IMG/VR virus record: IMGVR_UViG_2799112923_000001 | DNA length: 64,000 nucleotides | Source of the DNA: a virus | Taxonomy: Duplodnaviria; Heunggongvirae; Uroviricota; Caudoviricetes | Direction: 5' to 3' (one strand) | Shown: one piece after another, positions 11,432-54,786 of the stretch | Numbering within the stretch: position 1 is the stretch's first letter | Layout: every line of letters begins with the position of its first letter | Notes under the pieces: generated by a model | Databases searched by the model: none | What the model was told of the DNA's origin: nothing | The model's input: only the letters and a program-made list of their open reading frames with translations | Position numbers and translations under genes: made by a program

Positions 11432-11831
11432 TTGACAAGGGGGTAATGGATTACTATATTATAGTGTGTTAAGAGAATGGTTTGGTTCGTGAAACCAAAT
11501 AGTAGATTGAAAATTGGAATGTGTAAAAAATTTGCGTTTGTTAATACTCGCCTTGGTTGTGGTTGTGAACCACCTGCGGATAGAGATTAACAAATGTAAA
11601 TTACATTTTACAAAAAAAATTCAAAATATGGGTTGACAAACGATAAACAATTAACTATCTTTGTTCACACAAAGAAAATGATTGGTTCGTGAAATCAATT
11701 TGTAGATTGAATGATTTGGAAAATGTAAAAATAAAATTTACAAAAAAATTTACTAAAATGGGTTGACAAACAGAAAATGTTTTACTAAATTTGTGAAACA
11801 CGAATGATTGAAAATCGTTTGAGTAGATTGA
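11432..11831 (+). promoter_or_regulatory. Three tandem sigma70 promoters of the tRNA island, each followed by GTAGATTGA
   Basis: TTGACA at 11432, 11633 and 11763, each with a 17 nt spacer; GTAGATTGA at 11502, 11702 and 11823. Confidence 0.8.
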
Positions 11832-14840: not shown

Positions 14841-14869
14841 TTGACAAACATAAAACAAAAAACTATAAT
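14841..14869 (+). promoter_or_regulatory. Consensus sigma70 promoter
   Basis: TTGACA-17-TATAAT. Confidence 0.85.
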
Positions 14870-15472: not shown

Positions 15473-15484
15473 TAATAAATAAAC

Positions 15485-15926
15485 AGATTGAGAAATCAAT
15501 CAAGCGAAATCTTTAGCCTAATACAAATCTAATCTGGTTTGAAGGCACTATGGATGCACTGAAAAGGTGTTTGAAGTAGGTATGAGATAATCGCAAAAAC
15601 ATAGGGTAAACTGCGTAACTATTAGTTAGAGGTTTATATGTTTGTGGAATTTTGAGATACCCAGGGTTCCACAGGCTACGAAACAGATGTGGCGTCTGAG
15701 TTCAAATATAAGTCGCTAAAGCCGAAATAGTGAGAGTTTTATCGGATGACAGATATGCTATTTTTGGCACAGATTGCCGATATGTGTGTAAATCCACACC
15801 AGTGACTTGTAGCATTGAAAGGGGTAGCTGCCGAGTAAATGTGTTGCTGTGACCTAATAATGTTTGGTTATTTCATTAAAGGTAAACCCCAGTCCTTTAA
15901 GTTTCGTTTTATTGATTTTTCAATCT
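15485..15926 (+). ncRNA. Candidate ~440 nt structured ncRNA
   Basis: 16 bp terminal stem 15485-15500/15911-15926; no ORF. Confidence 0.55.
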
Positions 15927-16193: not shown

Positions 16194-16267
16194 CGCGGGG
16201 TGTAAGCAGTTGGTAGCTGGCAAGGCCCATAACCTTGAGGTCGCGGGTTCAAGTCCCGCCCCCGCTA
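16194..16267 (+). tRNA. tRNA-Met(CAU), initiator-like
   Basis: CGCGGGG start with a 1:72 mismatch; CAAGG-CCCATAA-CCTTG. Confidence 0.85.
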
Positions 16268-16737
16268 GAATTTGTCCACAAAGAAAAATGCGGTCAGAAC
16301 GCATTGGACCTTTTCCTGGTGAGAGCCTCGTAACTAGGACTGTAGCAAACGAGGCAACGAATTTAACGCGGCACAATTATTCTTTTTGCGAATTTGTTTA
16401 AAACAAACACAGATTCCACCATAAGAAGAAATAATTTCGTACAAACGCAAATAATCCTAATGACGTCTAATGGAACGATTGTGAGTGCGGCGACCAATTA
16501 ACTAATGGCTGATAGACGATAAATAAAATGAAGATATGAATATGGTTGCGGGTTGAGTCTAGATATTCCTTCTAGAATTATTCATTTCTCGGAAGTGACG
16601 AATCGGTATTCTTCCGGGCCATTATTTTGAAATTTAAACGTCTCCTAGGCGGTTATTGGTTCTTTACAATTTTCTCCACTAATCAAAAGAAAATCTATTT
16701 TTTGTTTGTTGTTACCTCCTTGGGTTGTGGTTGACCC

Positions 16738-16772
16738 AATGCTCACTAGCGAATGTTAGTGAGCATTTTTTG
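16738..16772 (+). terminator. Intrinsic terminator of the tRNA island
   Basis: ATGCTCACTAGC/GTTAGTGAGCAT plus T-run. Confidence 0.8.
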
Positions 16773-16958
16773 TAAGTACTGGTGCCATACTGACCAGTTT
16801 TTATTTAATTGGTATAGTTTACTATCCAACACAGAAATCGCCTTATAACGCAAGTACTGACGAATACTGTGTAAACAAACTTTTACAAAGAAATAGTTGC
16901 CAACCTGTATATTAGTTACTATATTATGGTTGTTAAAAATTAAAAGAGAGGTAAAAAT

Positions 16959-17150
16959 ATGAAGAAAGTTTATGTTCTCACATACAACACTATGGATAAG
17001 CCTGAACGTCGCATGATTTGGGGTGTTTATGGCTCAAAGGCAACAGATAAGGAAAACCACGATGAAGCAGAAAAGGCTCGTCAGGGCATTATCAAGCAGT
17101 ATGGTTCATTCCTAGCAGATACAGAAATTGATGAACAAGAAGTAAGGTAA
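16959..17150 (+). CDS. Hypothetical early protein
   Basis: Promoter TTGCCA 16897; GAGAGGT SD. Confidence 0.75.
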   Translation: MKKVYVLTYNTMDKPERRMIWGVYGSKATDKENHDEAEKARQGIIKQYGSFLADTEIDEQEVR

Positions 17151-17717
17151 ATGGATTATAAACAATCTATCGGTGCCGTTGTTAGGCATTTTTACGAACA
17201 CCATACTGATGTATGGTGTTTTTGTCCTGGTTTCCCTAATAATTACAAAGAAATGAAGTTATCCGAATTTGGTGAAACTGATGAAGAAATTGCGAACAAG
17301 ATAATAGACCAGTTACATGAAACTAAACTAGAATTTGAAATGTTCAGTTCCGACAACAGTCATCCAGGTGGTTCATTTTATGGGCCGTCATTGTATATTG
17401 AAAATGGTTATACTCCATTCCCAGATGGTGGAAAACCTAAATGGATTACTGGTACATTGAAAATGATACAACAAGTTCCAATGTTAAGGTATTATGGTGA
17501 TGATAAACGAATTTTCCAGTTAGGAAGTAAACCTGTAAATTTTTATTTCACACAACAGTTTAAAGGGCAAAACGATTTTGATAATTATTTGAAGTATTTG
17601 AAGAAAACAGAAGAAATAATCAAACACAACAAAGAATATCAAGATAGATTTGAAATTGATAAGAAATATGTAAAAGCCCAAGACCTGGAACAAGCAATTC
17701 AAACTGATTTTGATTAA
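17151..17717 (+). CDS. xxDF-tail family protein
   Basis: Ends IQTDFD. Confidence 0.8.
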   Translation: MDYKQSIGAVVRHFYEHHTDVWCFCPGFPNNYKEMKLSEFGETDEEIANKIIDQLHETKLEFEMFSSDNSHPGGSFYGPSLYIENGYTPFPDGGKPKWITGTLKMIQQVPMLRYYGDDKRIFQLGSKPVNFYFTQQFKGQNDFDNYLKYLKKTEEIIKHNKEYQDRFEIDKKYVKAQDLEQAIQTDFD

Positions 17718-17862
17718 CACAGTTCGCCACCAAACAAAATGATTATTGTGGCTATTGAAAAATTATAAATAATAAACTATATTATAACTACTAAAATGGT
17801 TTACATTTAGCCCCCTGAGCAATTTGTGTATGGGATTGGTTAAATGGTTTGCCTTAAAATCT

Positions 17863-17985
17863 ACCACCCGTGGTGTAATGGTAGCACGGTAGGATATAAT
17901 AGAGATAAATTATTATTGATTTTTATAATAGAGTTATATAATAATAATTGGAATCAGGTGGGTGGTTCAAATCCCCCGGGGTGGT
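17863..17985 (+). pseudogene. tRNA-like element with the anticodon arm replaced by an AT-rich insert
   Basis: ACCACCC/GGGTGGT acceptor, GTG-TAATGGTAG-CAC D arm, GGTTCAAATCC T arm, ~60 nt AT-rich middle. Confidence 0.6.
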
Positions 17986-17998
17986 CTAAATTAGAATT

Positions 17999-18166
17999 TG
18001 GGTATAGTTCCCTGCACACAGTTCTAGAATGCGTGTTCAAGAAGCCCGCAGTAAGACCTCTGTGAAAGGTTTGGTGAGTTATCCTTGTCGCAAGGCACGA
18101 AGATTTGAAAGGGAATAAATGGATTAGATAGCAACTCAACTATCGCCGGGCGCAGTCCAATACCCA
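17999..18166 (+). ncRNA. Candidate ~170 nt structured ncRNA
   Basis: TGGGTAT/ATACCCA, CTGC/GCAG and GCCCG/CGGGC nested pairings. Confidence 0.4.
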
Positions 18167-18193
18167 TCACATTTAATACAAAGGAAAAACAAG

Positions 18194-18349
18194 ATGAAAA
18201 AGAAGAAAGTAGTTATTGAGAAAGAAACACAGGAACAGAAAGAAGCTCGTTGGAAGAAGAATTTGAAGATGGCACGAAGTTTTGCTAAACAAGCAGGTGT
18301 AAAGAAAGAAAAGAAAGTAGAAAAGCAATCGGAAAAATACGATTACTAA
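18194..18349 (+). CDS. Small basic protein (51 aa, not in ORF track)
   Basis: AAGGA SD; Lys-rich. Confidence 0.65.
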   Translation: MKKKKVVIEKETQEQKEARWKKNLKMARSFAKQAGVKKEKKVEKQSEKYDY

Positions 18350-18357
18350 CTACAGTT

Positions 18358-18440
18358 GGAGGATTAGCCTAATTGGTAAGGCAGCAGATTACTAATCTGC
18401 CGCGGGAAACCGCTTGGGGGTTCAAGTCCCTCATCCTCCG
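18358..18440 (+). tRNA. tRNA-Ser(ACU)
   Basis: GGAGGAT/ATCCTCC-G73; GCAGA-TTACTAA-TCTGC; long variable arm. Confidence 0.85.
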
Positions 18441-18457
18441 TTAATTGAGAACAAACT

Positions 18458-19252
18458 ATGAAAATTTATCCAAACTTAGCTGTTGAAGAATCAAACACAT
18501 CAATACAATATGCTCGTCAGTATGCAGCATATACCAGAGACGAAATTTTAGACTGGGTTAATCTAAAATGTTTGAGAGCATGTGAGAAACCTGATGAAAG
18601 AATAATTTGTGTAAGAACTGGTATTCAATGTGATAAAAGAATACAGAAGTATTTAACATTTGTATTCTATAATTACTCTGATAAAGAATATCTTTTATCC
18701 AAAATAGATACAAGAGATTGCTGGTATCAGGACCATAACAACGGTTGGATGTTCTCATATTATACTTGGGGAGATGCCTGCACATTTTTTAGAGATATGG
18801 GTTTATCCCTTGATGACCTGTATGCTAAATATGAAAAGAAATTTGAGAATACTATTGCTGAATACGATAAGTATATCAAAGATAAAATAGAGCAGCAGAA
18901 AATCTACGACATTGACACCGACGATTTTGAAGGTGAATTGCTATTTATGGCCGAGAAATATGGTTATAAATTTGAATCTGAGTTCGCTAGTAATGTGCCA
19001 ACTAAAAAGAATTATCATTTTACACACCCAACAACAGGTGCTTCAATAGATTACTATGTTAAACAGGTAAAGAAATATAATTATGTTTGTTGGGAGGTAT
19101 CTGCTAGTACTCCCTGGACTAAAGAATACTACTCAGTTTATGTGGATAGTTTTGAAGCCATTAAACGAATATCAGAGGGCTATATGATGATGTTCGCCCA
19201 ACCATTTATAGAAACAGATTGGCGAAATTTGCCCACATTCAAAGAAAAGTAA
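18458..19252 (+). CDS. Hypothetical protein (internal IDTDDFE)
   Basis: 264 aa ORF. Confidence 0.8.
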   Translation: MKIYPNLAVEESNTSIQYARQYAAYTRDEILDWVNLKCLRACEKPDERIICVRTGIQCDKRIQKYLTFVFYNYSDKEYLLSKIDTRDCWYQDHNNGWMFSYYTWGDACTFFRDMGLSLDDLYAKYEKKFENTIAEYDKYIKDKIEQQKIYDIDTDDFEGELLFMAEKYGYKFESEFASNVPTKKNYHFTHPTTGASIDYYVKQVKKYNYVCWEVSASTPWTKEYYSVYVDSFEAIKRISEGYMMMFAQPFIETDWRNLPTFKEK

Positions 19253-19337
19253 ACAAAAATTTACACAGTTTTATGAAAATCCTATTGACAATCAATAGGA
19301 TTTTTTCTATATTATATGGTATAAAAGAGAGGTAACT

Positions 19338-19550
19338 ATGGCAACAATTACAAATGTTAAAATGATTGATGTTCGTGCTTTGGATGTGTTTATGGTTCTT
19401 ACATCTGATACGAATGAATACAACTATGGAAATTGGTCGGCAAAGAAGTTGATTGAACTCTATGCTGCCGAAATCAACAAAGATTTTCAAAATAAGAAAA
19501 CACCTGAACAGGTTGCTAAGCATATCGTTAAACTCTATATGAAGGACTAA
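19338..19550 (+). CDS. Hypothetical early protein
   Basis: Promoter TTGACA 19285; GAGAGGT SD. Confidence 0.75.
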   Translation: MATITNVKMIDVRALDVFMVLTSDTNEYNYGNWSAKKLIELYAAEINKDFQNKKTPEQVAKHIVKLYMKD

Positions 19551-19553
19551 TTT

Positions 19554-19796
19554 ATGTGTAAGATTTGCGACCATATTGCTACAACTCGTTCCCCAATTCA
19601 AATCACCGCTCAATGGACTGCTACCCAGCATTCATCCACCATTACAACCGACCTTTCTAAATGCCAAATTGGTGTGTTCAATGAAGAAACTGGTGATTAT
19701 GATATGGTAGAATGGAAGGTTTGCCCGGTATGTGGCAAGCAGTTGAAGATTGAACCATGTAAAACAATGGAAGATATTGTAAAGAGGGAAGGCTAA
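19554..19796 (+). CDS. Small Zn-binding protein
   Basis: CKIC and CPVCG. Confidence 0.7.
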   Translation: MCKICDHIATTRSPIQITAQWTATQHSSTITTDLSKCQIGVFNEETGDYDMVEWKVCPVCGKQLKIEPCKTMEDIVKREG

Positions 19797-20170
19797 TGTA
19801 TAAAAGTTCTCGTAGCGAAAACCAACTCCAGTTTGATGTAACGAATGTGAAGCTCGGACAGCTCCCAGGTGTGTTTGATACAGTCACCAACGAAGGAGCA
19901 TTTTTCAAGAATTTCTCTGATGATTGGGCAAATGGATATTGGGAAGATGGCTGGGATGTTGAACCGACCAAGGTAGCTGGTACTTGGTTTGACTATTTGC
20001 GTAAGAAAACTGAAGCATGGATTAACCCTGCTTATGATACATTTGATACTGACGATGATTTTGTTTGTAGAACTGTGTATCCCGAAAACCAAAAGCGAGA
20101 TGTAGCAGTTTCTGTAATTTTTGATAACACTAACGATATTGTAGTCGGTTGGTTTATTGACGCCGACTAA
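19796..20170 (+). CDS. Hypothetical protein
   Basis: ORF track; stop/start coupled. Confidence 0.75.
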   Translation: MYKSSRSENQLQFDVTNVKLGQLPGVFDTVTNEGAFFKNFSDDWANGYWEDGWDVEPTKVAGTWFDYLRKKTEAWINPAYDTFDTDDDFVCRTVYPENQKRDVAVSVIFDNTNDIVVGWFIDAD

Positions 20171-20184
20171 AGGAATAAAAAACT

Positions 20185-20334
20185 ATGGTAAATGCTTATT
20201 TGGGTATCTTTCTTAAAGATGGTGAACGAAAGACTGTAAAGTATTTGGCAGATGATATTGAAACTGCTGAAAAAGAATTAAAAGAAATCGCAACAACACA
20301 GGGTTCTATCCTGGAAGATGTTATGGAGGTCTAA
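20185..20334 (+). CDS. Small hypothetical protein (49 aa)
   Basis: AAGGA SD; fills the gap and is coupled to the next gene. Confidence 0.6.
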   Translation: MVNAYLGIFLKDGERKTVKYLADDIETAEKELKEIATTQGSILEDVMEV

Positions 20335-20753
20335 TGATTTTAATAACTAAGTCCGAAATTGACGAATTGTGTGCTTGCTATAATCTCACAATGACTAACA
20401 ACAAACCATTTAATACATTGGTAGGGTTTGCTGTTCCTGACGATGAACATTTCTATCTCGTTATCTCACACCCAGCATTACAAAATGATAAGGAAGAAGT
20501 TGTGTGTTTGAATAAAACATATAATAATTGCTATCGGGTAACTCGTTTGTTTGATAAATTTGAAGAAAAAGACGATTATGGCCGAGACACACGAACTTTA
20601 GGACCGAGAGAAAGAAACATTTTTAGACAAACTCTATTTTCTTACACAGAATTAAAGCTTCGCCTAAACAAATTGAGTGGTGAACTTAATGATTATGTTC
20701 GCAATAAAGTAACGAACAAGAATTTAGCAGAAATTAACAGTGATTTTGAATAA
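20334..20753 (+). CDS. xxDF-tail family protein
   Basis: Ends INSDFE. Confidence 0.8.
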   Translation: MILITKSEIDELCACYNLTMTNNKPFNTLVGFAVPDDEHFYLVISHPALQNDKEEVVCLNKTYNNCYRVTRLFDKFEEKDDYGRDTRTLGPRERNIFRQTLFSYTELKLRLNKLSGELNDYVRNKVTNKNLAEINSDFE

Positions 20754-20767
20754 AGGAGAAATAAACT

Positions 20768-21718
20768 ATGGCAGTTAAAACTATTCACACATTTAAGCAG
20801 TTATGCGAACGTATCATTATGAATGGTCCTGAAGACCAGAACTATTACAGTGATGAAGCACAACCAGATGTAGTTTACATTTCAAAGGAACTCAATGATG
20901 GAGCGAATGACATTAAGTTGTGGTATTCTGTAACCGGCAACGGTCGCCCAGTATATCTCGGGTACACTGGTTTGTGTTATTTCCCAAATGGCTCTCTCGT
21001 TGTGGATGATGTAAAGCCAACGATTAAGCCAAAGCCACAGTGGGATTATCCAATGAGCCATAAGCAAATTTTGGATTTGGCAAATTCTCGTTTGGCTAAG
21101 TATGGTTTATCAATGGAAAATTTCAGTTCCCAGTGGAATGATAAACATAAGAACTCAAAGATTTTAAAGTTGGAAAAGATTCCTGGTTGTAAGAAACGAT
21201 TCTGCTATGACCAGCCCCGATATTGTTCTGTTTGTAGCATTTCTTATGAAACTTCACCAAAGCAGGTTTTCTTTGGTTGTAATCTTGACGATGTGGATAG
21301 TGATTTTATGAAAGAAGGCAGACTGCAAGCTTCTTCTACCTATATCAAGATTCCATTGGCATTTAGACTAATTGAAGAAGATTACGCAATCTACTATGAC
21401 AACAATAAGGACCACGAATGGAAGAAGTATGGTTCTGTTGCGTATAATTTGGATTTGGTAGTTTGTAGAACACCTGAAGAAATCAATGCTTGGTTTGACA
21501 AGTTTGACGCATATTATTCTCGTCTCCAGGAACAGGCAAAGATTACATCCGAAGTATTTGATTATGTTAAGACTAATGGTAAACCATATAAGGACATTAT
21601 GAAAACATATACAAAGCGAACTCAGCAATACAAGGATGCTCGTAAGAACTACGAAGATATGATTTTAGGACAAATTAAGAGAATTACAGCTCTTGACAAA
21701 ATTAACAATGACTTCTAA
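20768..21718 (+). CDS. xxDF-tail family protein, paralog of the next gene
   Basis: Ends INNDF. Confidence 0.85.
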   Translation: MAVKTIHTFKQLCERIIMNGPEDQNYYSDEAQPDVVYISKELNDGANDIKLWYSVTGNGRPVYLGYTGLCYFPNGSLVVDDVKPTIKPKPQWDYPMSHKQILDLANSRLAKYGLSMENFSSQWNDKHKNSKILKLEKIPGCKKRFCYDQPRYCSVCSISYETSPKQVFFGCNLDDVDSDFMKEGRLQASSTYIKIPLAFRLIEEDYAIYYDNNKDHEWKKYGSVAYNLDLVVCRTPEEINAWFDKFDAYYSRLQEQAKITSEVFDYVKTNGKPYKDIMKTYTKRTQQYKDARKNYEDMILGQIKRITALDKINNDF

Positions 21719-21733
21719 AAGGAGAATAAACTA

Positions 21734-22492
21734 TTGCCAGCAAGTAATACTATTCAACAGCTCATTCAGCTCGCACAGTCTTTCCAAAATTCTATCACAT
21801 CGGGTCAACCAGTCAATCTCAACCAGGTCTTTGGGTCACCTAGCCAGCAGAAAACATTCAATATGAACATCGCAGACATTGAAGCTCTCGCTAATGCTCG
21901 TCTAGCAAAGAATAGTTTGGCTCTCAAGTCCTATCACGAAGACCCAGATTGGGATTTCAAGTGTGTTAAGGGAGAGGATATTCCAAATTTCACAAAGAGA
22001 TTCTGTTATTTCCGAGAAGGCTTTGCTGGAGAATGTTTGTGTGGTCTTTCTATGCAATCGGGTAAGCCAGCTCTCATTTGTGCTGACATTAATGACATTG
22101 ATAGTGATTTTATGAGCGAAGGTAATCTCCAGGCCTCATCTACCTATATCAAACACCCTCTAGCATTTCATTTGTTTAGATTTGGTGACCTGATGCATTT
22201 TGACCAGGGCTTGTGTTTTGGTGTTCCTGTAGAAGTTCTCGCCACTGAAGACGAAATTAACGCATGGTTTGATAAGTTTGATTCTATCTATCCTCGTCTC
22301 CAGGCTCAAAATACTATGGTTGCCGAGGTCTATAAGAATGTTAAAGAACTTGGTAAGCCATACAAAGATATTATGAAAACTTATCAAAAGCGAACAAATG
22401 AATACAAGGAAGCCCGTAAGAACTATGAAGAAATGATTTTAAATCAAATCAAGCGAATTACGGCTGTGGACCAGATTAACAACGATTTCTAA
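21734..22492 (+). CDS. xxDF-tail family protein, tandem paralog
   Basis: TTG start; shares DSDFM-x-EG-x-LQASSTYIK and C-terminus; ends INNDF. Confidence 0.85.
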   Translation: MPASNTIQQLIQLAQSFQNSITSGQPVNLNQVFGSPSQQKTFNMNIADIEALANARLAKNSLALKSYHEDPDWDFKCVKGEDIPNFTKRFCYFREGFAGECLCGLSMQSGKPALICADINDIDSDFMSEGNLQASSTYIKHPLAFHLFRFGDLMHFDQGLCFGVPVEVLATEDEINAWFDKFDSIYPRLQAQNTMVAEVYKNVKELGKPYKDIMKTYQKRTNEYKEARKNYEEMILNQIKRITAVDQINNDF

Positions 22493-22505
22493 GGAGAAAC
22501 TTATT

Positions 22506-22940
22506 ATGGCATATTCTGTTGGTGATTTTAAGAAAATGATGAAAGATGCGTATAAAACCGCATTTGGTTATCGCGGTGCCACCGGTTTTAATATCTATCG
22601 CAGATATGCCGGTAATAAGTTCCGTTATTGTAGTGAATGTGAAGTTAACGAACTAAATGCTCCAGGTGGTTTCACTCATTGGATTCCTAAGGCTAATCCC
22701 ACAGATCCAAAGAAAGTAAAATACATTGGTTTTTGGTTCGGTGTGTATATTACAGATGCTACCGGAACTAGAATGGATTTACATTATATTCATTTTATGT
22801 ACGAAGATACTACTATCCTTGGTGTATGTTATGAAGATTTTGATAATCCACAAACACAGCTTCAAATTAATAGTGGTATCACACCTACCACAACTCCAAT
22901 GAATGTTCAGTTAAACGATTTCATACAGGCTTTTAAGTAA
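22506..22940 (+). CDS. Hypothetical protein
   Basis: AAGGAG SD. Confidence 0.75.
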   Translation: MAYSVGDFKKMMKDAYKTAFGYRGATGFNIYRRYAGNKFRYCSECEVNELNAPGGFTHWIPKANPTDPKKVKYIGFWFGVYITDATGTRMDLHYIHFMYEDTTILGVCYEDFDNPQTQLQINSGITPTTTPMNVQLNDFIQAFK

Positions 22941-23245
22941 TGAACTTATTCCAAATTAAAAATCTACTAGAGAAAGACGCAGATCTAATTAAGACCTTGG
23001 ATAGCAATTCAAGTTTCCGATTTGATTGCAAACTAGAATATGAATACCAGGGACATGGTATTCTCTCAGTAGATGGTGGTTGGGTTCAGGTTGCCGGTCT
23101 AAACATTTATATGGAATATCTCAGTAAGAAAGACCTTCTTTCTAGGATAGAGATAGGAAAAGAGAGAATCCGTAATCTTATTAGAGAGAATAAAGAAAGA
23201 CTTGTTGAAATTCATTTAAAACAAATGAATATGGATTTTGAATGA
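22940..23245 (+). CDS. xxDF-tail family protein
   Basis: Ends MNMDFE. Confidence 0.75.
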   Translation: MNLFQIKNLLEKDADLIKTLDSNSSFRFDCKLEYEYQGHGILSVDGGWVQVAGLNIYMEYLSKKDLLSRIEIGKERIRNLIRENKERLVEIHLKQMNMDFE

Positions 23246-23562
23246 TTTTTGAACATATTGCTGATATAGAAAAATTGTTAAAGAAATATGGATTTTCTTT
23301 GAACCGATACCATGATTCTGTAATCACTCGTTGGAATTTGTATTATAATAATTCCGGCGGAAGTATTGCTGAGTTATGGAAGAATAATAAATTGGGTCAG
23401 TATAAAATACGATATGAACAGAGTGCAGGAAATGTGCCAGCATATTCTATGGAATTATGCGATGATGAAAAATTTGAACAGTATCTAATAGATTATATTA
23501 GAGAAAGAAAAGAAGCCAATGTAAGAATTAAATTATCCGATATAAAAAAGGATTTTGAATGA
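23242..23562 (+). CDS. xxDF-tail family protein
   Basis: Ends IKKDFE. Confidence 0.75.
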   Translation: MIFEHIADIEKLLKKYGFSLNRYHDSVITRWNLYYNNSGGSIAELWKNNKLGQYKIRYEQSAGNVPAYSMELCDDEKFEQYLIDYIRERKEANVRIKLSDIKKDFE

Positions 23563-23846
23563 CTTTTGAAAGATTTAAAGAAATGGTAAAACAAGACCCT
23601 ACAATTATTGTAGTTATAGATACACCTAAAAAATTTGTTTGTAACTACAATGAGAGAGAATTGTTATCTTCTAATGGTGCAGTTGTTCTCTCGTTTAATA
23701 TGAATATGCGTTATGAGTATATGAGTGAAGAAATGGCTAAGTTCGTTATCCAAAATGGTAAAGATTATGTTAATCATTATATTAAATGGGATAAAGAACT
23801 TAGAGAAACTGAAAGATTAGAAGAAATACAGAAGGATTTTGTATGA
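23559..23846 (+). CDS. xxDF-tail family protein
   Basis: Ends IQKDFV. Confidence 0.75.
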   Translation: MTFERFKEMVKQDPTIIVVIDTPKKFVCNYNERELLSSNGAVVLSFNMNMRYEYMSEEMAKFVIQNGKDYVNHYIKWDKELRETERLEEIQKDFV

Positions 23847-24154
23847 TTACTCTTGACCGAATTAGAGAACTATGTTTACAGTTTGGTTATAAACCATTTG
23901 ATAGAGAACCAAACGAATACCATATTGGAGAGTCTTCAGTATTTAAAGTATTACCAAATGAAACTAGCAAAAATGTAGTTTACTGGGACACGATGTATAC
24001 TTTGGGTACAAGATACTCTAATACAGATTTGACTGAAGAAAAAGTAATTGAAATGATTAAAGAAAATCTAAAATGTGTTCAAAAACACGAAGAAATGAGA
24101 AAGAAAAAATTAGAACACAGAATGTTGAGCAGTATTCAAGAGGATTTTAGATGA
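23843..24154 (+). CDS. xxDF-tail family protein
   Basis: Ends IQEDFR. Confidence 0.75.
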   Translation: MITLDRIRELCLQFGYKPFDREPNEYHIGESSVFKVLPNETSKNVVYWDTMYTLGTRYSNTDLTEEKVIEMIKENLKCVQKHEEMRKKKLEHRMLSSIQEDFR

Positions 24155-24552
24155 TTACTTTGTGCCAAATTAAAGCATTACAGAGAGAATTTGATTTAAC
24201 CTATACTGAAGAATTTGGCTATATCACTATAGGCTCTAAACATCCAGCATGGGAACTAAAGCATGGGCAAATGGCATTAGCACAGTTCTCTTATTGGGAA
24301 TGTGAAAAACAATACAATTTAATCTATCTCGCTGCCGTAATTCACAAAACACCGAATGAATTTATTCTATTACCCGCTGGCTATGATAAAGATGGAACAA
24401 ATGTTGCCTCTATCCATGCTCCACCTCTCTCTTACGAACAACTGCGTATTCACCTTAAATCTCTCCTTGAAGATTTTGATTATCTCTCCCTCTATAAGAA
24501 ACAACTAAAATTACAACAAAATATCTCTAATATCTCTCATGATTTTAAATAA
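24151..24552 (+). CDS. xxDF-tail family protein
   Basis: Ends ISHDFK. Confidence 0.75.
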   Translation: MITLCQIKALQREFDLTYTEEFGYITIGSKHPAWELKHGQMALAQFSYWECEKQYNLIYLAAVIHKTPNEFILLPAGYDKDGTNVASIHAPPLSYEQLRIHLKSLLEDFDYLSLYKKQLKLQQNISNISHDFK

Positions 24553-24868
24553 AGACTCTCTCATACAATTATTAACCCAAAATGGGTGTGAGTATTGCTC
24601 CTGCCCACCTTCTCTCACTTACAAAGATTATAGATTTCTATCCTTTAATCATTGGTTTTATGATACAGATACAGATTTTAGATTACATACACATCTAACT
24701 AAAACACTCATGACTAATCATGGGTTAAGATGTAAGTATACAAATACCTCTCCTGAATTTATTCTCTATCATTTAGAGAAATTCAAAATGTGGGTAGATA
24801 GGCTCTCTCTCAAAGAAAAACAAGAAAAACTTACTAATATGATTGGCAAAATTCAAGAGGACTTCTAA
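24539..24868 (+). CDS. xxDF-tail family protein
   Basis: Ends IQEDF. Confidence 0.75.
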   Translation: MILNKDSLIQLLTQNGCEYCSCPPSLTYKDYRFLSFNHWFYDTDTDFRLHTHLTKTLMTNHGLRCKYTNTSPEFILYHLEKFKMWVDRLSLKEKQEKLTNMIGKIQEDF

Positions 24869-25323
24869 TGAACTTAACTTTGGAAGAAATAGAACATATT
24901 TGTAGTAGATATAATCTACAGTTTATCCAAACAAGTCCAACAGAACATCAATTATTTCTTCGCTCTGATATATTTGGGGCATATTCTTATCCTGAATTGG
25001 GAGGTTATATCTTACCTGTAGCCGATTTTAAAATGACCGCCGACATCCATTCCAAATATGCTCTATACAATACTTATAATGCTTTTCTTATGAGAGACTT
25101 CCAAACAATACCACCTTATATCTGTTTATTCCGAGCCATCACACCCGCTGAAAAATCTCATGGTGATATTATCTTTCTTAATACCCAATTCACTTATATC
25201 CCAGATTCTATACAGTTTATGAATTATATCCATTGGATATTAGATACTATCCCGGAAGCATCCAAATATCTCAAACAATATAAACAAAATAAACTTTTTG
25301 AACAAATACAAAAGGATTTTTAA
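24868..25323 (+). CDS. xxDF-tail family protein
   Basis: Ends IQKDF. Confidence 0.75.
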   Translation: MNLTLEEIEHICSRYNLQFIQTSPTEHQLFLRSDIFGAYSYPELGGYILPVADFKMTADIHSKYALYNTYNAFLMRDFQTIPPYICLFRAITPAEKSHGDIIFLNTQFTYIPDSIQFMNYIHWILDTIPEASKYLKQYKQNKLFEQIQKDF

Positions 25324-25658
25324 TGCTTATCCCTTATTCTAAATTAGAGAATGTAAGAACTTTGTTCACGAATTTAGGTATTAAAGATACCAATTATGGT
25401 GTATTTGAAGAATTTTATATCTCCCGCCCACACTTGGCTAATTTAGTAATAGCCGAATTACATAAAGATGTTCCCGGCTTCGCTATCTTACTCTTTAAAA
25501 TCTATATCAAAGATAATAACCTGTATAATGATAGAAATGATAGAATCCTAATAGATAATATCCCAGATCTAATCTCTACCCTTGACAATTATTCTTTAAT
25601 TCTTAAACAATACGAACAAATACTAGAAATTAAAAAGATTAAGAAGGATTTCCTATGA
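25323..25658 (+). CDS. xxDF-tail family protein
   Basis: Ends IKKDFL. Confidence 0.75.
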   Translation: MLIPYSKLENVRTLFTNLGIKDTNYGVFEEFYISRPHLANLVIAELHKDVPGFAILLFKIYIKDNNLYNDRNDRILIDNIPDLISTLDNYSLILKQYEQILEIKKIKKDFL

Positions 25659-26035
25659 ATCGTTATAGATTAAAAGACATTTATTCTCTATGTGGTCTTT
25701 TTCCTAATGACTTCAAGGTTTATAAAAACTCTACCTCTTATGGTATTACATCTCTCAAACTGAACACTATTATTATAGCATTTCAACAAGTATCTAATAC
25801 ACGATATGAAATTCATGCTATAACAAACTGTTTTATGTTTTCTAATGGTGGTATCGCACCTTGTGATTCTAATAGAATGGTATCCGATATATTTACTGAC
25901 TATGTGTTTAAGAATGTACCAAACAAATTATCCGATTATTTAAGATATTTTCGTGATAATTTCCAATATGTAGAAAAAGCATATAAAGAATACTTATATG
26001 CCAAAAAACTAAACAATATATCTGAGGATTTTTAA
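25655..26035 (+). CDS. xxDF-tail family protein
   Basis: Ends ISEDF. Confidence 0.75.
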   Translation: MNRYRLKDIYSLCGLFPNDFKVYKNSTSYGITSLKLNTIIIAFQQVSNTRYEIHAITNCFMFSNGGIAPCDSNRMVSDIFTDYVFKNVPNKLSDYLRYFRDNFQYVEKAYKEYLYAKKLNNISEDF

Positions 26036-26211
26036 TAAGAATGAAATTATCCCTATATGGTATTTATTAGCAAAAAACTGTGGTGAAACCACGAAATTTG
26101 CTATTGAACCAGTGTTTGACCCACTTTGCACGGTTTGTTGCAGTAAATAAAAAAATTTTTTGAAAAAAGAATATATTTACAAGTAAAGGATAAATTTATA
26201 TATTATTGGCT

Positions 26212-26679
26212 ATGGCAAAGTTATTAGGAATACAGTATTTGGATTATGATATAGCCAATAAGTATGTTGACATGTACAACAACATCGTAAAGGCTAATCA
26301 GGATTTTGAAAGTGAAAAGAAGGAAATAGAATTAGATTCATTTTGTAGCATTTACAATAAGTTTAGTAAGGAATGGAGTGATTTAATTTATTTAATCAGT
26401 TATGAAGAAGATGGTGAATATCATAATTTAATCAGTTATGTAGATAATGATGATGGATATAGAAGTTATGTAAAAACCATAGAATTAGCAGGATTAGGTC
26501 AACCATTATTAAAGCAGTTTGAATATGATGTAGATATATCAAGATATGTAAGTGGACAAAATGAAATAAATTATGATATTTTGATACAGTATGAGGGTAA
26601 GAATATATTTGAATGTTACACAGATAACAGTGATAATTATTATCCAGTAGGGAATATAGAATATCATGGATTTCAATAA
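26212..26679 (+). CDS. Hypothetical protein
   Basis: ORF track; start uncertain. Confidence 0.7.
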   Translation: MAKLLGIQYLDYDIANKYVDMYNNIVKANQDFESEKKEIELDSFCSIYNKFSKEWSDLIYLISYEEDGEYHNLISYVDNDDGYRSYVKTIELAGLGQPLLKQFEYDVDISRYVSGQNEINYDILIQYEGKNIFECYTDNSDNYYPVGNIEYHGFQ

Positions 26680-26974
26680 TTTAATAGAAAAAGAACAGTT
26701 ATTGTATGCTCAAGGGTTTTATTATTTTGAGAAGGGTAGTCCATTAATCATGTATGAAAACTGCAATCAGTTTATGATATATGTTCGTCGGCATATACAA
26801 CTACTAGAAAATAATAAGATTGGTGATGGTGATTTTGATATAATGTTCAGGGAATCCGCAGATTTAGAACAACGAATACAAGCATTACGAATAGAATGGA
26901 ATAATATAGTATTATACTTTAAACAACTAAAAATGGAAAAACAACTACAACAACTGGAGAAAGATTTTGAATAA
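26666..26974 (+). CDS. xxDF-tail family protein
   Basis: Ends LEKDFE. Confidence 0.75.
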   Translation: MDFNNLIEKEQLLYAQGFYYFEKGSPLIMYENCNQFMIYVRRHIQLLENNKIGDGDFDIMFRESADLEQRIQALRIEWNNIVLYFKQLKMEKQLQQLEKDFE

Positions 26975-27482
26975 ATACGGATTAGATATATCAAACACCA
27001 AAAAGACAGTAATGGATAATATAGCCAAGATTGAAGCAGTTAATGCAGATTTTAATAAAATTGAAAATCCATTTACTAAAACTTCATTATTCATAGAAGG
27101 TAGCCTTGGTATGAATGGTAAGATTGATGGAAGACCCAAGGTATATTCCGAATTGATTATTAGGGATTTTAGTTATAAGTTACACATGAGATTTATATTC
27201 CGATACAGTTTAGCAAGAAAGAATTGGAAGTTTGGTGATTTTGAAATAAATTATAGTAGAAATTGGTGGAATGAAAAGCCAGGAGATGAACAATATAGGG
27301 CATTATGGCAAAAGGTTAAAGATTTTGATTTTGAAGGATTATTTAAGAAAAAGAATTTAGAAGAATGTTGGAATATATTGGCTGAATGTATTACCGGTGT
27401 GAATGGTGAAGAAGAATTAAGTCTATTCTATAAAAATCTTATAAATGTTAGTGCCACAGATAAAATCAAAGGAGATTTCTAA
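26967..27482 (+). CDS. xxDF-tail family protein
   Basis: Ends IKGDF. Confidence 0.75.
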   Translation: MNKYGLDISNTKKTVMDNIAKIEAVNADFNKIENPFTKTSLFIEGSLGMNGKIDGRPKVYSELIIRDFSYKLHMRFIFRYSLARKNWKFGDFEINYSRNWWNEKPGDEQYRALWQKVKDFDFEGLFKKKNLEECWNILAECITGVNGEEELSLFYKNLINVSATDKIKGDF

Positions 27483-28039
27483 TGACTTGGGATGACGCAG
27501 TAGAAGCATTTGCCAAATATGATATAGATATTAAAAAATATCGTAATGGTAAATTGAAATTCAAGGATATTAAACTCACAAAGCAGTATTTTAAGAGAAG
27601 ACCGGAATATCCAGTATTTGAGTATAATGAAGCCACTTATAATGGAACATTAACCAAGAATAATTTTTATATTGATTATAACACAAATGCTAAGGGTGAT
27701 TTCTTATATTATCAACCAGCAGATTTTGGTGACTTATCAGATTGGGAAATGGATGATTTTTTGAAGTCAAAGGGTAATCCTACACGATATTTTAGAACAT
27801 GGCATGGAAAGAAGATTGCTATAAATGGAAAAGAACAATTAGAATGGGCTTTGAAGGATTTCTTTAATAGATTGGAAGTTATGAATAAACTGACTACAAA
27901 TGAAGATTTGTTGCAGATTAAGAAGGATTTCCAAGAACAGACTAATGAATTAGAAAGAATTACCCAGAACATAAAGAATTTAAAGACTAAATACAAACAT
28001 ATATTTAAAACACAAGCCGGTATAAATGCCGATTTTTAA
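27482..28039 (+). CDS. xxDF-tail family protein
   Basis: Ends INADF. Confidence 0.8.
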   Translation: MTWDDAVEAFAKYDIDIKKYRNGKLKFKDIKLTKQYFKRRPEYPVFEYNEATYNGTLTKNNFYIDYNTNAKGDFLYYQPADFGDLSDWEMDDFLKSKGNPTRYFRTWHGKKIAINGKEQLEWALKDFFNRLEVMNKLTTNEDLLQIKKDFQEQTNELERITQNIKNLKTKYKHIFKTQAGINADF

Positions 28040-28050
28040 GGAGAAATAAT

Positions 28051-28233
28051 ATGGAAGATATAAAGGAAAAACTACTAATCGCAGTTCAAGACGGTGCTAT
28101 TGATGGAGCAGATGTGGTTGAAAAACTATTAGCATACATTGATGGTGATACGGTACAGGATATTGTGGATTCCGAAGGTTGGGATGAAGCATGTGGGATT
28201 GGTATTAGTGATTCTAGTGATGACGAATACTAA
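28051..28233 (+). CDS. Small acidic protein
   Basis: AAGGAG SD. Confidence 0.7.
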   Translation: MEDIKEKLLIAVQDGAIDGADVVEKLLAYIDGDTVQDIVDSEGWDEACGIGISDSSDDEY

Positions 28234-28323
28234 TGTAAAGAAAATTTTACATAGAATGGGTTGACAAAACCCATTCTTTTTTCTATAATATAGTGTAGAA
28301 CTTCAAAATAAGGACAAAAAACT

Positions 28324-28800
28324 ATGCAAAATACTATGAGATTTATTCCACTTAACGATATTCTTGAATTGCTTACTGGTAAGTCAACGGGATTTCCTAG
28401 TTCTTTTTATGAACAAGTAGACCCAGATTTGCGACCAACTAATAAGGTTCCAGCGGAAAAGGCTAATGCTTGTTGGGCAAATGGTACACCAGTGTATCAA
28501 GAACCCAAGTGGAATGGTGATAAGGCATTTGAATTGGCAAATGACATTAAGGCTCGTAGAGCAAAGATTGAAGAAATCAAGGCAGCTCAACAGGCAGAAT
28601 TGGAACGTGAACAGAAAGCATTGGAAGAAGCCGAAAAGCAGTATCACAATGAACTCTCCCATATCCGATATGTTGGTGATGACAAGCAGTTGGAACTTTT
28701 GATTCCCCGCGAAAAGATGTTCCAGTTGGTTAAGGGATTGACAGATGTAATTAACGGGAATAAGGAAGCAAAGTCTTATAAGGTCAAGATTACTCTTTAA
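28324..28800 (+). CDS. Hypothetical protein
   Basis: Promoter TTGACA 28261 / TATAAT. Confidence 0.8.
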   Translation: MQNTMRFIPLNDILELLTGKSTGFPSSFYEQVDPDLRPTNKVPAEKANACWANGTPVYQEPKWNGDKAFELANDIKARRAKIEEIKAAQQAELEREQKALEEAEKQYHNELSHIRYVGDDKQLELLIPREKMFQLVKGLTDVINGNKEAKSYKVKITL

Positions 28801-28919
28801 TCTTGACTTTTTATGCAGTTCTTAATGAAACAAAATAAATAGGTGAAAACATTGACAAGTGTAAACTAATAATTTACATTTACAATGTTGAACAATTTAA
28901 CTATATGGAGAAAAAAACT

Positions 28920-29558
28920 ATGAATACAAATTCAACAAAATCCGCCTCTAAGGCACCAATGAGCAACCGTGAAATTCTCGGTATGAAGCTAAAGAACATT
29001 GTTTCTACTAACAAGCAGTCCATTGAAAAGGTTGGCGACAACGCCTGGCGTTTCAAGGACATTGAGGTAGATAACAAGGTAAATGATTATCTTGTTCGTT
29101 TGGAAGCCAAGACTGGTAAGTCAGGCAAGACATTCAAGAAGCGTAATCTTTATCGTATCGTTGATGGTGCGGAACAGAAGGTTGAATTGGGTGAATTTAA
29201 GAAGGAATATCTTTATAAGATTGTTTCCGGTTTGACTAGCACCGCAGTTCCTCGTGAAAAGCTCGCAAAGTGGGATGCTGATTCCGGTCATAAGATTTGT
29301 GAATACATCAAGACCCACCAGGACGAATTTAAGACTGTTGATGGTGTAACCACAGGTAAGATTCCCGAAATTGGTGAAATCAAGTACATTGCTGGTCATC
29401 TCAAGGCTATGAAGAATGGACACAAGCGTTTGTTTGGTCGCAAGCTCTATGTGAATGGCGAAATCCACTCCGAAGGTGGTAGTTTGCATCGCATTGACCG
29501 TGCTATCAACGCAAAGAAGCGTGGTCGCAAGCCTGCCGTCAAGACTGAAAGTAAGTAA
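28920..29558 (+). CDS. Basic hypothetical protein, possibly nucleic-acid binding
   Basis: GGAG SD; Lys/Arg-rich; KKRGRKP tail. Confidence 0.8.
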   Translation: MNTNSTKSASKAPMSNREILGMKLKNIVSTNKQSIEKVGDNAWRFKDIEVDNKVNDYLVRLEAKTGKSGKTFKKRNLYRIVDGAEQKVELGEFKKEYLYKIVSGLTSTAVPREKLAKWDADSGHKICEYIKTHQDEFKTVDGVTTGKIPEIGEIKYIAGHLKAMKNGHKRLFGRKLYVNGEIHSEGGSLHRIDRAINAKKRGRKPAVKTESK

Positions 29559-29638
29559 TTACAGAGCCGCTAACCCCGGTTGGGTTAAAGGGTAGTAGAA
29601 AAACACTACTACCCTTTTTTTCTTTCAAAGGATTTAAT

Positions 29639-30094
29639 ATGATTGTAGAATATAATGGTGATAAGTTCCAAGTAATGTTCTTTCATAAGAATAAAGAATG
29701 TAAGTGTGAAATTTGGTTAATGAGTAATCTTCCAACCAATGAATTAGAATATGTGCATCAAAAGTCTAAAATTCGTGGTTGTGAATCAAAGAAACACCCA
29801 GATACCATTTCTAAATTGTTATTAGCAAAGACAGTAGCCAAGTGTGCTGATGAAGATAATTACATTTATGCGTATGGTCGTGCATTATCCTTGAAACGAG
29901 CCTTACGAGTACTTATTGATGAATCTTACAATACTACCAGTGTGGAACATGTAGACCGAATTATCCAGTTCAATAATGAAATGTTCAAGAAATTCATGCA
30001 TGAATTGAAGGTACAATGCCCACACGGGGTAGAAGCCGCAGAGAAGTTACAGTCTGTTAAGGGCTATAATTTAAACGAAGATAATATGTGTTAG
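29639..30094 (+). CDS. Hypothetical phage protein
   Basis: AKCADEDNY...GRALSLKRAL. Confidence 0.75.
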   Translation: MIVEYNGDKFQVMFFHKNKECKCEIWLMSNLPTNELEYVHQKSKIRGCESKKHPDTISKLLLAKTVAKCADEDNYIYAYGRALSLKRALRVLIDESYNTTSVEHVDRIIQFNNEMFKKFMHELKVQCPHGVEAAEKLQSVKGYNLNEDNMC

Positions 30095-30234
30095 ACATTC
30101 CCACACGGGAATCTCCGTCATGAACCGGTGCTGCAGATGTGCTGCTCGCCGGTTCTTTTTATGTAAACATTATTTTACACAGTTTTGGGCTAAAACCCAT
30201 TGACAAACCATAATGAATATACTATATTTGTTTA

Positions 30235-30860
30235 TGTGATTGAGAGAATTGGTGGTTCGCTCTTAAAATCAACCAACAACGAAACCACATCACTTAAGGA
30301 GATTAGTATGAAGGAAGATAGTCCGCCGCTCAATTAATTATGGTCATTAGTTTCCGGGTCGCAATAGGATGCGGGACCAAACGCCGGGCGGAAACGAGTG
30401 GGATAGCAACCCTACCATAGTACACAAAGATACACGAGTTTGGCACGGTGCCCTTCGCAAAGGCACCACTGGAGTTCTTTGGTCTATCTTAACATGGATT
30501 AGGATATACCACAGAACTTGAGAATGATTGCGTGTCTGATCGTTCAAGTATAGGACTCCGCAGTGAGCGGCAATATCTGGGGTAGAGCCAGACAAGACTA
30601 AAACGCAAACATTCAAGGGATTACATAGCAGTGGACGCACCAATATGATAATCCCAGCGCTCTTGAATCTCGTAGCATAACTCTAGTGCAGCAGAATACC
30701 AAGCTGACGATGGTGGTGAGAATCCCCCGAGATTTATCTTTGAATCGCATAGCCGGTAGCCCGGTGTGGAATGTTGGAAATCCACGATAAACCAACAAAA
30801 ATTTTTGATTGTTGTTACCTCCTTAACCGCTCCCTGAGATTACATCAACGGGAGCATTTT
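30235..30860 (+). ncRNA. Candidate ~600 nt ncRNA transcription unit
   Basis: Own promoter (TTGACA 30200, TATATT 30223) and terminator (30829-30860); raised GC, hairpins, no long + strand ORF. Confidence 0.6.
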
Positions 30861-30959
30861 TGTATATTAAATTTTACATAAAAATACTCAGTTTACTATT
30901 GACAAATAACGCAGTTTAAACTATATTTGTATATGTAAAACAAAACAAGAGGTAACACT

Positions 30960-31421
30960 ATGATTAACAACACCGCTCTCTACAATCTCGCCAACTATGA
31001 AACCATCCATGCTGAATGGGATAAAGATGTTAAAGAATGCCGAGACCTTTGTATAGAAAAGACTTGCCCCGTTCTTTATAAACTTCTTGAAGCAGTATAT
31101 AATAAGAATGGTGGTGCCGACTATCATGATTACGATATGTGGGACTCCGAATTTGACCGAGTTCATCGTGAAAACTGGGTAACTCCCGTTATCCAGCTCA
31201 ACAATGAAATGTTTAGCAAGAGCCATAACCCGAAGGTGAATCACCTTGTGGAAGCAGGTTTGAATGGACTTCGTGGTTATCTCACTATTCCGCCTGAAGA
31301 TGACCAGGACCGCTATGAAATTCTTGAATACATTGAACGCATGCAGCCTATTATGGAAAACTATAAGGTTGCTATGAATGATTTGAAGAAGCGAATGGAA
31401 ACTGCTTTGAAGAACATTTAA
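30960..31421 (+). CDS. Hypothetical early protein
   Basis: Promoter at ~30899; AGAGGT SD. Confidence 0.8.
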   Translation: MINNTALYNLANYETIHAEWDKDVKECRDLCIEKTCPVLYKLLEAVYNKNGGADYHDYDMWDSEFDRVHRENWVTPVIQLNNEMFSKSHNPKVNHLVEAGLNGLRGYLTIPPEDDQDRYEILEYIERMQPIMENYKVAMNDLKKRMETALKNI

Positions 31422-33136: not shown

Positions 33137-33139
33137 CGA

Positions 33140-33690
33140 TTACCTCTCTATGGGACCTGGTCTTTGACTATGGTCCCTCTCTTTTTATAGTCCTCTTCAG
33201 TCATGCAGTTTAACACCCAAAAAACTGTATGTCAAGAATTCCAACATATATTATGGCTAGAAACATGTCAAAACTGGGACACCCAAAATAGCCCAAAAAT
33301 GACCCATTTTCGCCCATATTTGGTCGCAGGATTGTTTTAAATTTTTCCTAAAATTTGTATTAAGAGGCATATATGGGTATATGGCTATGGGTGGTAGCAC
33401 CCAAGCTCTATCAACTGTGGGCGGCGGCTCCTTCTCATAGTCAGTAAAAAAATAAGGACTTTTCCCAAAAAACCCAGTCTGCAGGGAATGGTCGGTCGGA
33501 ATCTCCACAGTTCTCTATTTTTCCTATATGGTATATCTCAAAAAAAATCTGCGCTTCTAAAAACACATATTTTCTGTGGGAAATGGTCAGTTGGAAATAT
33601 GGGATAAGTATATAAAAGTTTACATATATGGGCTAGAAAAAAATACAGCGCTGCAAAAATTTGGTATTTTTCTGTGGAAATAGTCAGTTA
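33140..33690. other. Non-coding region with degenerate direct repeats; candidate replication origin
   Basis: Three CTG-YRGRAAT-RGTCRGT-like repeats (~33479, ~33574, ~33672); C-rich to G-rich skew switch. Confidence 0.4.
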
Positions 33691-33783
33691 TGTAAACAAA
33701 CATTTACATATAATTTACAGTTCTATATTGACAAAATGGGTAAAAATTACTATATTAATAGTATAAAAATAAGAGAGGTAACA

Positions 33784-34449
33784 ATGGCTACTAGAACATA
33801 TCACGAAACAGAATACACCAACACGATTGATGAAGTTAAGAAACATTTTAAGAAGGTATGTAAGAAAGAAGGATGGTTGGTATCATTCTTTGTTTGGAGT
33901 AAGGGTGAGATTGATTTCAAAGATACTATGATGGATGTTGATATTGTAACTGATATTAAAGACCAAAATGGTAGATATATTGGAGTTAGTTTCTGTTATC
34001 AGCCGAATGGTAGTAAATCCTATTTTAAATTCCATGACGAAATGAAGAAAGGTTTATGTAATTATGGAAACGAATTTAGTTTTACATTGGGTAAGAAGTT
34101 CAACATGATGGATGAAAATGTTGGAACGATTCTTCGTGAATACATTGAAAAGCGAGTTGGTCAGGTTGAATTGAAGATTAAGCAGCGGAAGATTGACAAT
34201 GAATTGAATAAGATTGATAATGGAGATTTCATTGGTAAACTGGAAGAATTTGGTGAAGTTTGGATTGATGATAAGAAGATTAACAATTACAGTGTTGCGA
34301 ATTGCGATATTGAAAAGGTGAAAGATATTTGGAAGGTTCGCATTTGTGGTTTGGGTTATGCGTATTACAAATGTAAAGATTTGGATGAAGTTTATGGTTT
34401 GATTAAATGGTATAAGAGTATGCCGGTTAAGATGTGTGGTAAGTTCTAA
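33784..34449 (+). CDS. Hypothetical early protein (internal IDNGDF)
   Basis: Promoter TTGACA 33728; GAGAGGT SD. Confidence 0.8.
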   Translation: MATRTYHETEYTNTIDEVKKHFKKVCKKEGWLVSFFVWSKGEIDFKDTMMDVDIVTDIKDQNGRYIGVSFCYQPNGSKSYFKFHDEMKKGLCNYGNEFSFTLGKKFNMMDENVGTILREYIEKRVGQVELKIKQRKIDNELNKIDNGDFIGKLEEFGEVWIDDKKINNYSVANCDIEKVKDIWKVRICGLGYAYYKCKDLDEVYGLIKWYKSMPVKMCGKF

Positions 34450-54688: not shown

Positions 54689-54786
54689 TGTAAACTATTA
54701 TTTACACAGTTTTAACAAAAAACCATTGACAGTTTCAATGGTTTTTTCTATATTTAATTATGTAAAAGATAACAAAAGAGGTAACT

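Follow-up and report, generated by a model that had tools for sequence, protein, structure and literature searches.

The 64,000-nucleotide (nt) stretch of DNA analysed here (IMG/VR record IMGVR_UViG_2799112923_000001, Caudoviricetes; the window, taken at its full length) is that of a rumen T4-like jumbo phage and carries, at positions 16706–16721 (copy A) and 30809–30824 (copy C) of the + strand, two identical 16-nt tracts, each located just ahead of an intrinsic terminator and complementary to the ribosome-binding sites (RBSs) of the phage's own early genes. By base pairing, these anti-RBS tails, which recur in related phages, probably shut down the synthesis of early proteins. Pairing of the tails with the phage's own early RBSs, either in cis or in trans, appears quite likely, and we favor, with moderate confidence, a trans action for the two window copies.

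Both copies had been reported in a preliminary description of this DNA, and a search of the window returned them and no further copy; ~5e-5 copies are expected from base composition. On the + strand of the window, CCTCCT is confined to these two sites. The core of the tract, GTTACCTC, occurs seven times against a shuffle mean of 1.0 (0/100 shuffles reach seven): two copies lie on the + strand and five on the − strand, the latter corresponding to the RBSs of the open reading frames (ORFs) at 1679, 19338, 30960, 33784 and 54787. The complementarity claimed for these five RBSs was therefore confirmed, with a TTGACA-17-TATATT promoter directly ahead of each, as was the identity of ACCUCCUU with the anti-Shine–Dalgarno (anti-SD) sequence of 16S rRNA. 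Intrinsic terminators follow the two copies at 16738–16772 and 30829–30862. The statement that the transcripts end in the motif holds insofar as the tract lies just upstream of the terminator; the tract itself is not the 3' end, being placed 4 and 16 nt before the terminator stems. As described, neither copy is followed on the minus strand by a properly spaced ATG, and no minus-strand promoter lies within 400 nt, and on these grounds minus-strand translation was rejected; in this phage family, none of the anti-RBS copies is accompanied by a start codon at proper spacing or by a promoter on the minus strand. The motif had been described on two non-coding transcripts; it is not restricted to such RNAs, and in relatives mRNA 3' untranslated regions (UTRs) hold most copies.

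The complementarity is specific to a gene class. Sigma70-proximal genes have in common AAGAGGU followed by an A/C-rich spacer, and late genes mostly carry AGGAG. The seed ranks sigma70-proximal RBSs over others with an area under the curve (AUC) of 0.86 in this phage, against 0.74 for a plain anti-SD and 0.69 for a 16S tail; in the relative G002 the AUC of the seed is 0.78. The p-values of this class preference overstate the evidence because sigma70-proximal RBSs have common ancestry. Predicted target sites, all on the + strand, are the RBSs of genes 1679 (1669–1681, duplex −14.2 kcal/mol), 19338 (19329–19340, −14.9), 30960 (30949–30962, −13.6), 54787 (54778–54789, −12.8) and 33784 (33775–33786, −17.2), the last being the best site on the whole + strand. 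This class-specific complementarity, along with covariation of tract and RBS across lineages, supports the earlier suggestion that the phage's own early RBSs are occluded.

Covariation provides a stronger test than the ranking of early against other RBSs. Behind the DUF2201/VWA early gene, the tract co-varies with that gene's own RBS in four lineages with 62–66% protein identity: RBS GAGGUACAA faces tract UUGUACCUC in this phage, UAUGAGGUA faces UACCUCAUA in L508, AACGAGGU faces ACCUCGUU in L509/L270, and CAAUGAGGAUUAA faces UUAACCCUCAUUG in L510. The true assignment of tract to RBS is the best of 24 permutations, for tracts chosen by eye and with the terminator of L509/L270 lying behind the next gene. 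For tracts B, F and G, the match to the own RBS falls within the top 6–11% of early RBSs, and in the whole-transcript folds tested own-RBS pairing is 1.0 for B and 0.83 for F. Since most copies in relatives lie in mRNA 3' UTRs and several match their own RBS, cis fold-back belongs to the system and is not only an alternative to it.

The tract family was surveyed in this phage and three relatives (~300 kb). All exact TTGTTGTTACCTC 13-mers (10/10) lie ≤35 nt upstream of a terminator, against 0.012 expected by composition, and they are spread over 5–6 unrelated contexts, including tRNA trailers and early-mRNA 3' UTRs. Copies B and B' occupy the 3' UTRs of early operons that differ in their last gene, D and E belong to two early single-gene units on the opposite strand, and G lies in L344. 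Variant tract F lies behind the VWA gene and is also present, as a fourth tract of this phage, ~5.3 kb upstream of the window, on a contig of the phage with an identical copy of the window's 728 protein. Variant tract H (ATTACCTCTCT, 33139–33149, + strand), flanked by a stop codon and the terminator at 33152, is conserved in 11 close loci and fits best the AGAGAGGTAA-type RBSs of other units, with 4546, 16959 and 33784 as top partners. Some copies end in ACCUCA or ACCUCG instead of the terminal CCUU. Among 234 IMG/VR matches, a clear terminator immediately follows the core or variant in only three family members, and protein-based IMG/VR scans with two neighbouring genes gave no match. In a distant relative, a standalone promoter-to-terminator unit of ~95 nt (L267:5085–5235) shows complementarity to the next gene at its RBS and start codon, and this adjacent early RBS is the best match of the unpaired stretch of the unit; the minus strand of the unit is also readable as a 14-codon ORF. 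The match in L504 was attributed to chance, and a possible anti-AAGGAAA tract after an AAA ATPase gene, with weak energies, was not used as evidence. After the early AAA ATPase gene, L270:2965–3040 and L509:9262–9330 show a hairpin with a large U/G-rich loop, possibly another anti-leader element.

Copy A belongs to element A (16655–16772, + strand), the ~120-nt 3' trailer of a tRNA array and a candidate trans-acting small RNA (sRNA), which is kept in ~20 related loci and directly follows tRNA-Met in most of them. A 6-bp hairpin with a C/U-rich loop precedes the single-stranded seed, which is followed by a small second hairpin and the terminator. To judge from the sequence comparison, the seed (16706–16721) is the conserved part of the element: it is invariant in 7 aligned sequences and almost unpaired in predicted folds, with an opening cost of 1–2 kcal/mol. 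The terminator of the array (16738–16772, + strand), a 13-bp stem and a T run, shows compensatory changes, and pairing in the stems of the element is kept at every variable position, as counted in only 7 related sequences. In the window, tRNA-Met(CAT) (16195–16266, + strand) is separated from element A by ~380 nt of modules that are variable or missing in relatives, in which the tRNA adjoins the seed; its 3' processing would release a trailer carrying A. Transcription of the array may start at three tandem sigma70-type promoters (11432–11791, + strand) and a fourth at 14841–14869, all recognized by consensus matches only. In the distant L510 (66% identity in the VWA protein), the order of seed, hairpin and terminator behind tRNA-Met is kept, with an unchanged seed, a different hairpin and a different terminator, and no conserved cognate RBS was found on the tRNA array transcripts. 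Retention of the seed among different hairpins, in a unit without a cognate RBS, argues for action in trans.

Other features lie in and around the array. A structured insertion of ~100 nt splits the two halves of element A in L100 (227–330) and L133, and the variable module behind tRNA-Met may form an H-type pseudoknot at 16313–16356. A AGTAGATTGAA-like box follows each of the three tandem sigma70 promoters at 11465–11830, and also occurs at 12030 and 15486, an arrangement that recalls a ribosomal RNA operon leader with its antitermination box. A non-coding block of ~450 nt (15474–15922), ~68% conserved in L085 and L088 and without an Rfam match, is a candidate large structured RNA. Downstream of element A, a promoter-driven non-coding region (17795–18165) contains a long hairpin finishing in a tRNA-like T-loop; it is ~78% conserved in L085, L088 and L100 and densely covered in two RNA assemblies.

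Copy C lies at the end of unit C (30235–30862, + strand), a modular, mostly non-coding unit of ~630 nt that runs from promoter to terminator without a long ORF (fold z = −2.45). Its sigma70-type promoter (30200–30228, + strand) has 11/12 consensus bases, and the unit contains a 9-codon ORF, several hairpin modules, a tRNA-like element and the seed. Unit C is conserved in close strains, missing at the syntenic site of G001–G003, and without a match among GenBank phages. The seed (30809–30826, + strand) is invariant in 11 close strains despite variable flanks, and opening it costs 0.6–1.7 kcal/mol in the trailer versus 4.4–6.8 in whole unit C. The terminator (30829–30862, + strand) falls below detection of a simple terminator scan and was established by folding (−12.6 kcal/mol) and strain comparison, with a compensatory double change in strain L251; it resembles the terminator directly behind the 29639 homolog in G001. 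The tRNA-like element (30666–30735, + strand) scores 26.7 bits with the tRNA model, for which the gathering score is 29; if it is processed, a ~125-nt trailer containing seed C would be set free. Copies A and C are alike, each having the seed in a trailer behind a tRNA or tRNA-like structure. The element itself has a mismatched anticodon stem and an ACC-centred loop, and its homolog in G002 (L505) lies directly behind a promoter. Near the start of the unit, the RBS TTAAGGAG (30294–30301) and the 9-codon ORF MKEDSPPLN (30308–30337) are invariant in close strains (30294–30337, + strand). The cis pair of CTCCTTAA with this RBS, previously offered as an alternative, is real but modest: 8 bp, with a pairing probability of 0.59 in the whole-transcript fold and −10.8 kcal/mol, weaker than the trans matches (−13 to −17).

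The data presented above lead us to propose a model in which transcripts started by the host polymerase at sigma70 promoters would carry, immediately ahead of their terminator, the anti-RBS tail as an unpaired tract rich in U/G and C, whose complement is the SD and spacer typical of early genes (AAGAGGUAAC..AUG). On mRNAs, the completed 3' end would fold back onto its own RBS and limit translation, so that such tails would cap the protein yield per finished early transcript. The non-coding window copies would probably be freed as ~120-nt terminator-protected trailers downstream of the tRNA or tRNA-like element; trailers A and C would then accumulate as stable RNAs and pair in trans with early-gene RBSs. 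Such pairing would block 30S loading and hasten decay, acting as a delayed brake on early expression.

The phage is uncultured. Its T4-like jumbo markers include topoisomerase II subunits, a tail sheath stabiliser, a T4-like terminase and 14 tRNAs; relatives lie on contigs of 370–420 kb, and the sequencing runs holding the phage are mostly bovine and sheep gut metagenomes. At 91–195, the window contains a cow-rumen-2 RNA (Rfam RF02947, 103 bits), an orphan motif that is thereby assigned to a jumbo phage. Binning gives a hint of a Fibrobacter host: the CCA enzyme of a relative is encoded on a contig of 466 kb that binning assigned to a Fibrobacter metagenome-assembled genome, which shares the CTATATT style of −10 element and a homologous small gene beside tRNA-Ser. 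Searches with the NrdD of a relative, with ACP and in the ESM Atlas did not identify the host. Both copy regions are covered in rumen metatranscriptome contigs, to which DNA carry-over may contribute. One RNA contig of X19/X20 (apparently one data set) stops at 16718, inside the seed, and the X17 contig crosses the terminator, so that neither is evidence of an RNA end.

Several points weigh against the proposed model. The metatranscriptome contigs give no RNA strand, ends or level, and the covariation comprises four lineages with eye-picked tracts (1 in 24) on mRNA copies, not A or C. Copies D, E, B', H and C show no preference for their own RBS, so that action is not exclusively in cis. The window also has some sites other than RBSs whose pairing is as strong as that of the early RBSs. 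Because an A precedes GAGGU in early RBSs, copies A and C can pair there through their terminal CCUU only with a bulge; AAGGAGGU is a better fit for CCUU than the phage AAGAGGU, which could point to host mRNAs. Regulator and targets have the same promoter class, which does not explain the timing, and we know of no RNA chaperone in the host.

These observations bear on other explanations. Copies A and C could be sRNAs acting in trans mainly against host mRNAs with AAGGAGGUAAC-type RBSs, causing host shut-off, with phage early genes matching because they copy the host's strongest RBS. The terminal CCUU pairs bulge-free only with AAGGAGGU, which is rare among phage RBSs, the conserved second C/U loop of element A prefers non-early GGAGAA sites, seed A is fixed across lineages with varying early RBSs, and a lambda sRNA regulating host mRNAs is known (10.1101/2024.10.31.621285). 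Such a mainly host-directed action is nevertheless unlikely, as the mRNA copies follow the phage's own RBS, no GTDB genome contains an exact match to the 22-nt complement of A, and phage early genes would be hit anyway. Action in cis only, with C folding onto the RBS of its 9-codon ORF and A serving as a 3'-end module without a trans target, would account for the own-RBS matches of B, F, G and the VWA series and for the flank of C that lengthens its pair with TTAAGGAG to 8 bp. We consider it distinctly unlikely, given that seed A is invariant on arrays lacking a conserved cognate RBS, that C retains its UUGUUGUUA part, dispensable for pairing with the mini-ORF RBS, and that H, D and E fit other units better.

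It is also conceivable that the tract is a protein-binding site, a 3'-end processing or stability signal or a 16S-tail decoy, with RBS pairing incidental. U-rich single strands next to terminators are typical chaperone sites, the position of the tract before terminators is fixed, ACCUCCUU equals the anti-SD, and the RNA contig that stops at 16718 could be read weakly in this sense. Yet the tract changes with its partner RBS, even losing ACCUC (CCCUC faces GAGGA in L510), and the seed separates early RBSs better than does the 16S tail, which makes such a role highly unlikely. In particular, mimicry of the 16S tail, as put forward in the preliminary description, was not borne out: only ACCUCCUU is common to the tract and the 16S 3' tail (GAUCACCUCCUU after helix 45, with a free 3' end), GAUC and helix 45 are both missing from the tract, which has 40–50 nt of hairpins behind it and so is not terminal, and copies ending in ACCUCA or ACCUCG lack CCUU. 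Finally, the tracts could be relics, either inverted promoter/RBS cassettes spread by recombination in the manner of PeSLs or minus-strand RBSs of lost genes. Early promoter-RBS cassettes are indeed repeated at 72–86% identity, PeSL shuffling is known in T4-type phages (PMC2839356), and of 107 IMG/VR matches to the 16-mer, 87 lie close to a start codon on the minus strand, mostly as ordinary RBSs of unrelated phages. A relic origin is nonetheless very improbable, since the family copies have no properly spaced start codon or minus-strand promoter and the seed stays conserved among differing flanks, terminators and upstream genes.

The proposed pairing of the tails with early RBSs has precedents in bacteria. 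In the icaR mRNA of Staphylococcus aureus the 3' UTR pairs with the 5' UTR (PMC3868564), which hinders formation of the initiation complex and yields a substrate for RNase III, and in B. subtilis distal anti-SD tracts repress translation and destabilise mRNA in vivo (PMC12697547). As in these systems, where pairing blocks initiation and promotes decay, a far-downstream anti-SD tract is complementary to the SD of the same mRNA in copies B, F, G and the VWA series, partially in C (8 bp), and not in A, D, E or H. Unlike in icaR, the phage tract is found on many unrelated transcripts, within very short 3' UTRs next to the terminator; it extends over the SD-AUG spacer as well and is present on non-coding RNAs too. 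In its hairpin, single-stranded C/U seed, hairpin and terminator, and in having multiple copies that would mask the RBSs of several mRNAs, the arrangement resembles the Neisseria sibling sRNAs NgncR_162/163 (NmsR; 10.1101/2022.05.24.492095). Like trans-acting anti-SD sRNAs, it presents an accessible single-stranded seed between hairpins, ends in an intrinsic terminator, and has a seed that is conserved and complementary to RBSs on other transcripts. S. aureus RsaE is another trans-acting anti-SD sRNA. Unlike NmsR, the RNAs described here come from a T4-like phage, are probably processed out of a tRNA trailer, and would act on a gene class of the phage itself. The seed is reminiscent of the G/U-rich R1 seed of GcvB, which pairs with C/A-rich translation-initiation sequences (PMC7769764); R1 targets enhancers upstream of the SD, whereas in the phage seed an anti-SD is continued by the complement of the spacer that follows the SD, and the two have no homology. 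No Rfam sRNA family reaches its gathering score (NmsRb 25.3 vs 52 bits, VrrA 20.6 vs 50), and unit C has no Rfam match except a weak tRNA. Neither ARAGORN nor Rfam supported A or C as a tmRNA, ROOL, GOLLD or ribozyme. The arrangement would act like icaR-type fold-back and anti-SD sibling sRNAs with a GcvB-like G/U extension, outside any Rfam family.

Among phage systems, the PeSL cassettes of T4-type phages are repeated units of sigma70 promoter, stem-loop and SD, and the available parts of these accounts place a sense SD at the 3' edge and describe no antisense tract before a terminator (PMC2839356, PMC4122927). The tract studied here is antisense and upstream of a terminator, and does not combine promoter, stem-loop and sense SD in one unit; we therefore rejected identity with a PeSL, and PeSL-like repeated cassettes explain why early genes have one RBS in common. 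Two side observations concern the window's coding layout. Dozens of small proteins between 3122 and 57962 have a similar K-x-D-F tail, whose codons double as the SD of the next gene. The region 33160–33720 is ORF-free, of odd composition, with convergent promoter-like sites and conserved in relatives, and is possibly a replication origin.

T4 early-gene shut-off depends on proteins. The endoribonuclease RegB cuts the SD of early mRNAs, easing the early-to-late transition (PMC9409239), and the tails resemble RegB and the RegA repressor (PMC3014915) in that phage mRNAs would be inactivated class-wide at their initiation regions; unlike with these proteins, recognition would be by RNA base pairing. 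By this analogy, anti-RBS tails would be an RNA counterpart of T4 RegB. More tentatively, a T4-like jumbo phage may shut off its early gene class by RNA alone, through one RBS signature common to the early genes and matching tails on many transcripts that act in cis on mRNAs and in trans from processed tRNA trailers. The output of the tRNA array would then be tied to the switch from early to late expression, and no RegB-type nuclease would be needed for it. Regulatory RNAs encoded by phages are so far known in small number (10.1101/2024.10.31.621285), and a literature search found no account of such an arrangement of anti-RBS tails in phages. If true, a distributed class-specific anti-RBS code would represent a new way of timing phage gene expression, and would show that long-range anti-SD repression, against which bacterial genes are under selection (PMC12697547), is put to use repeatedly in nature.

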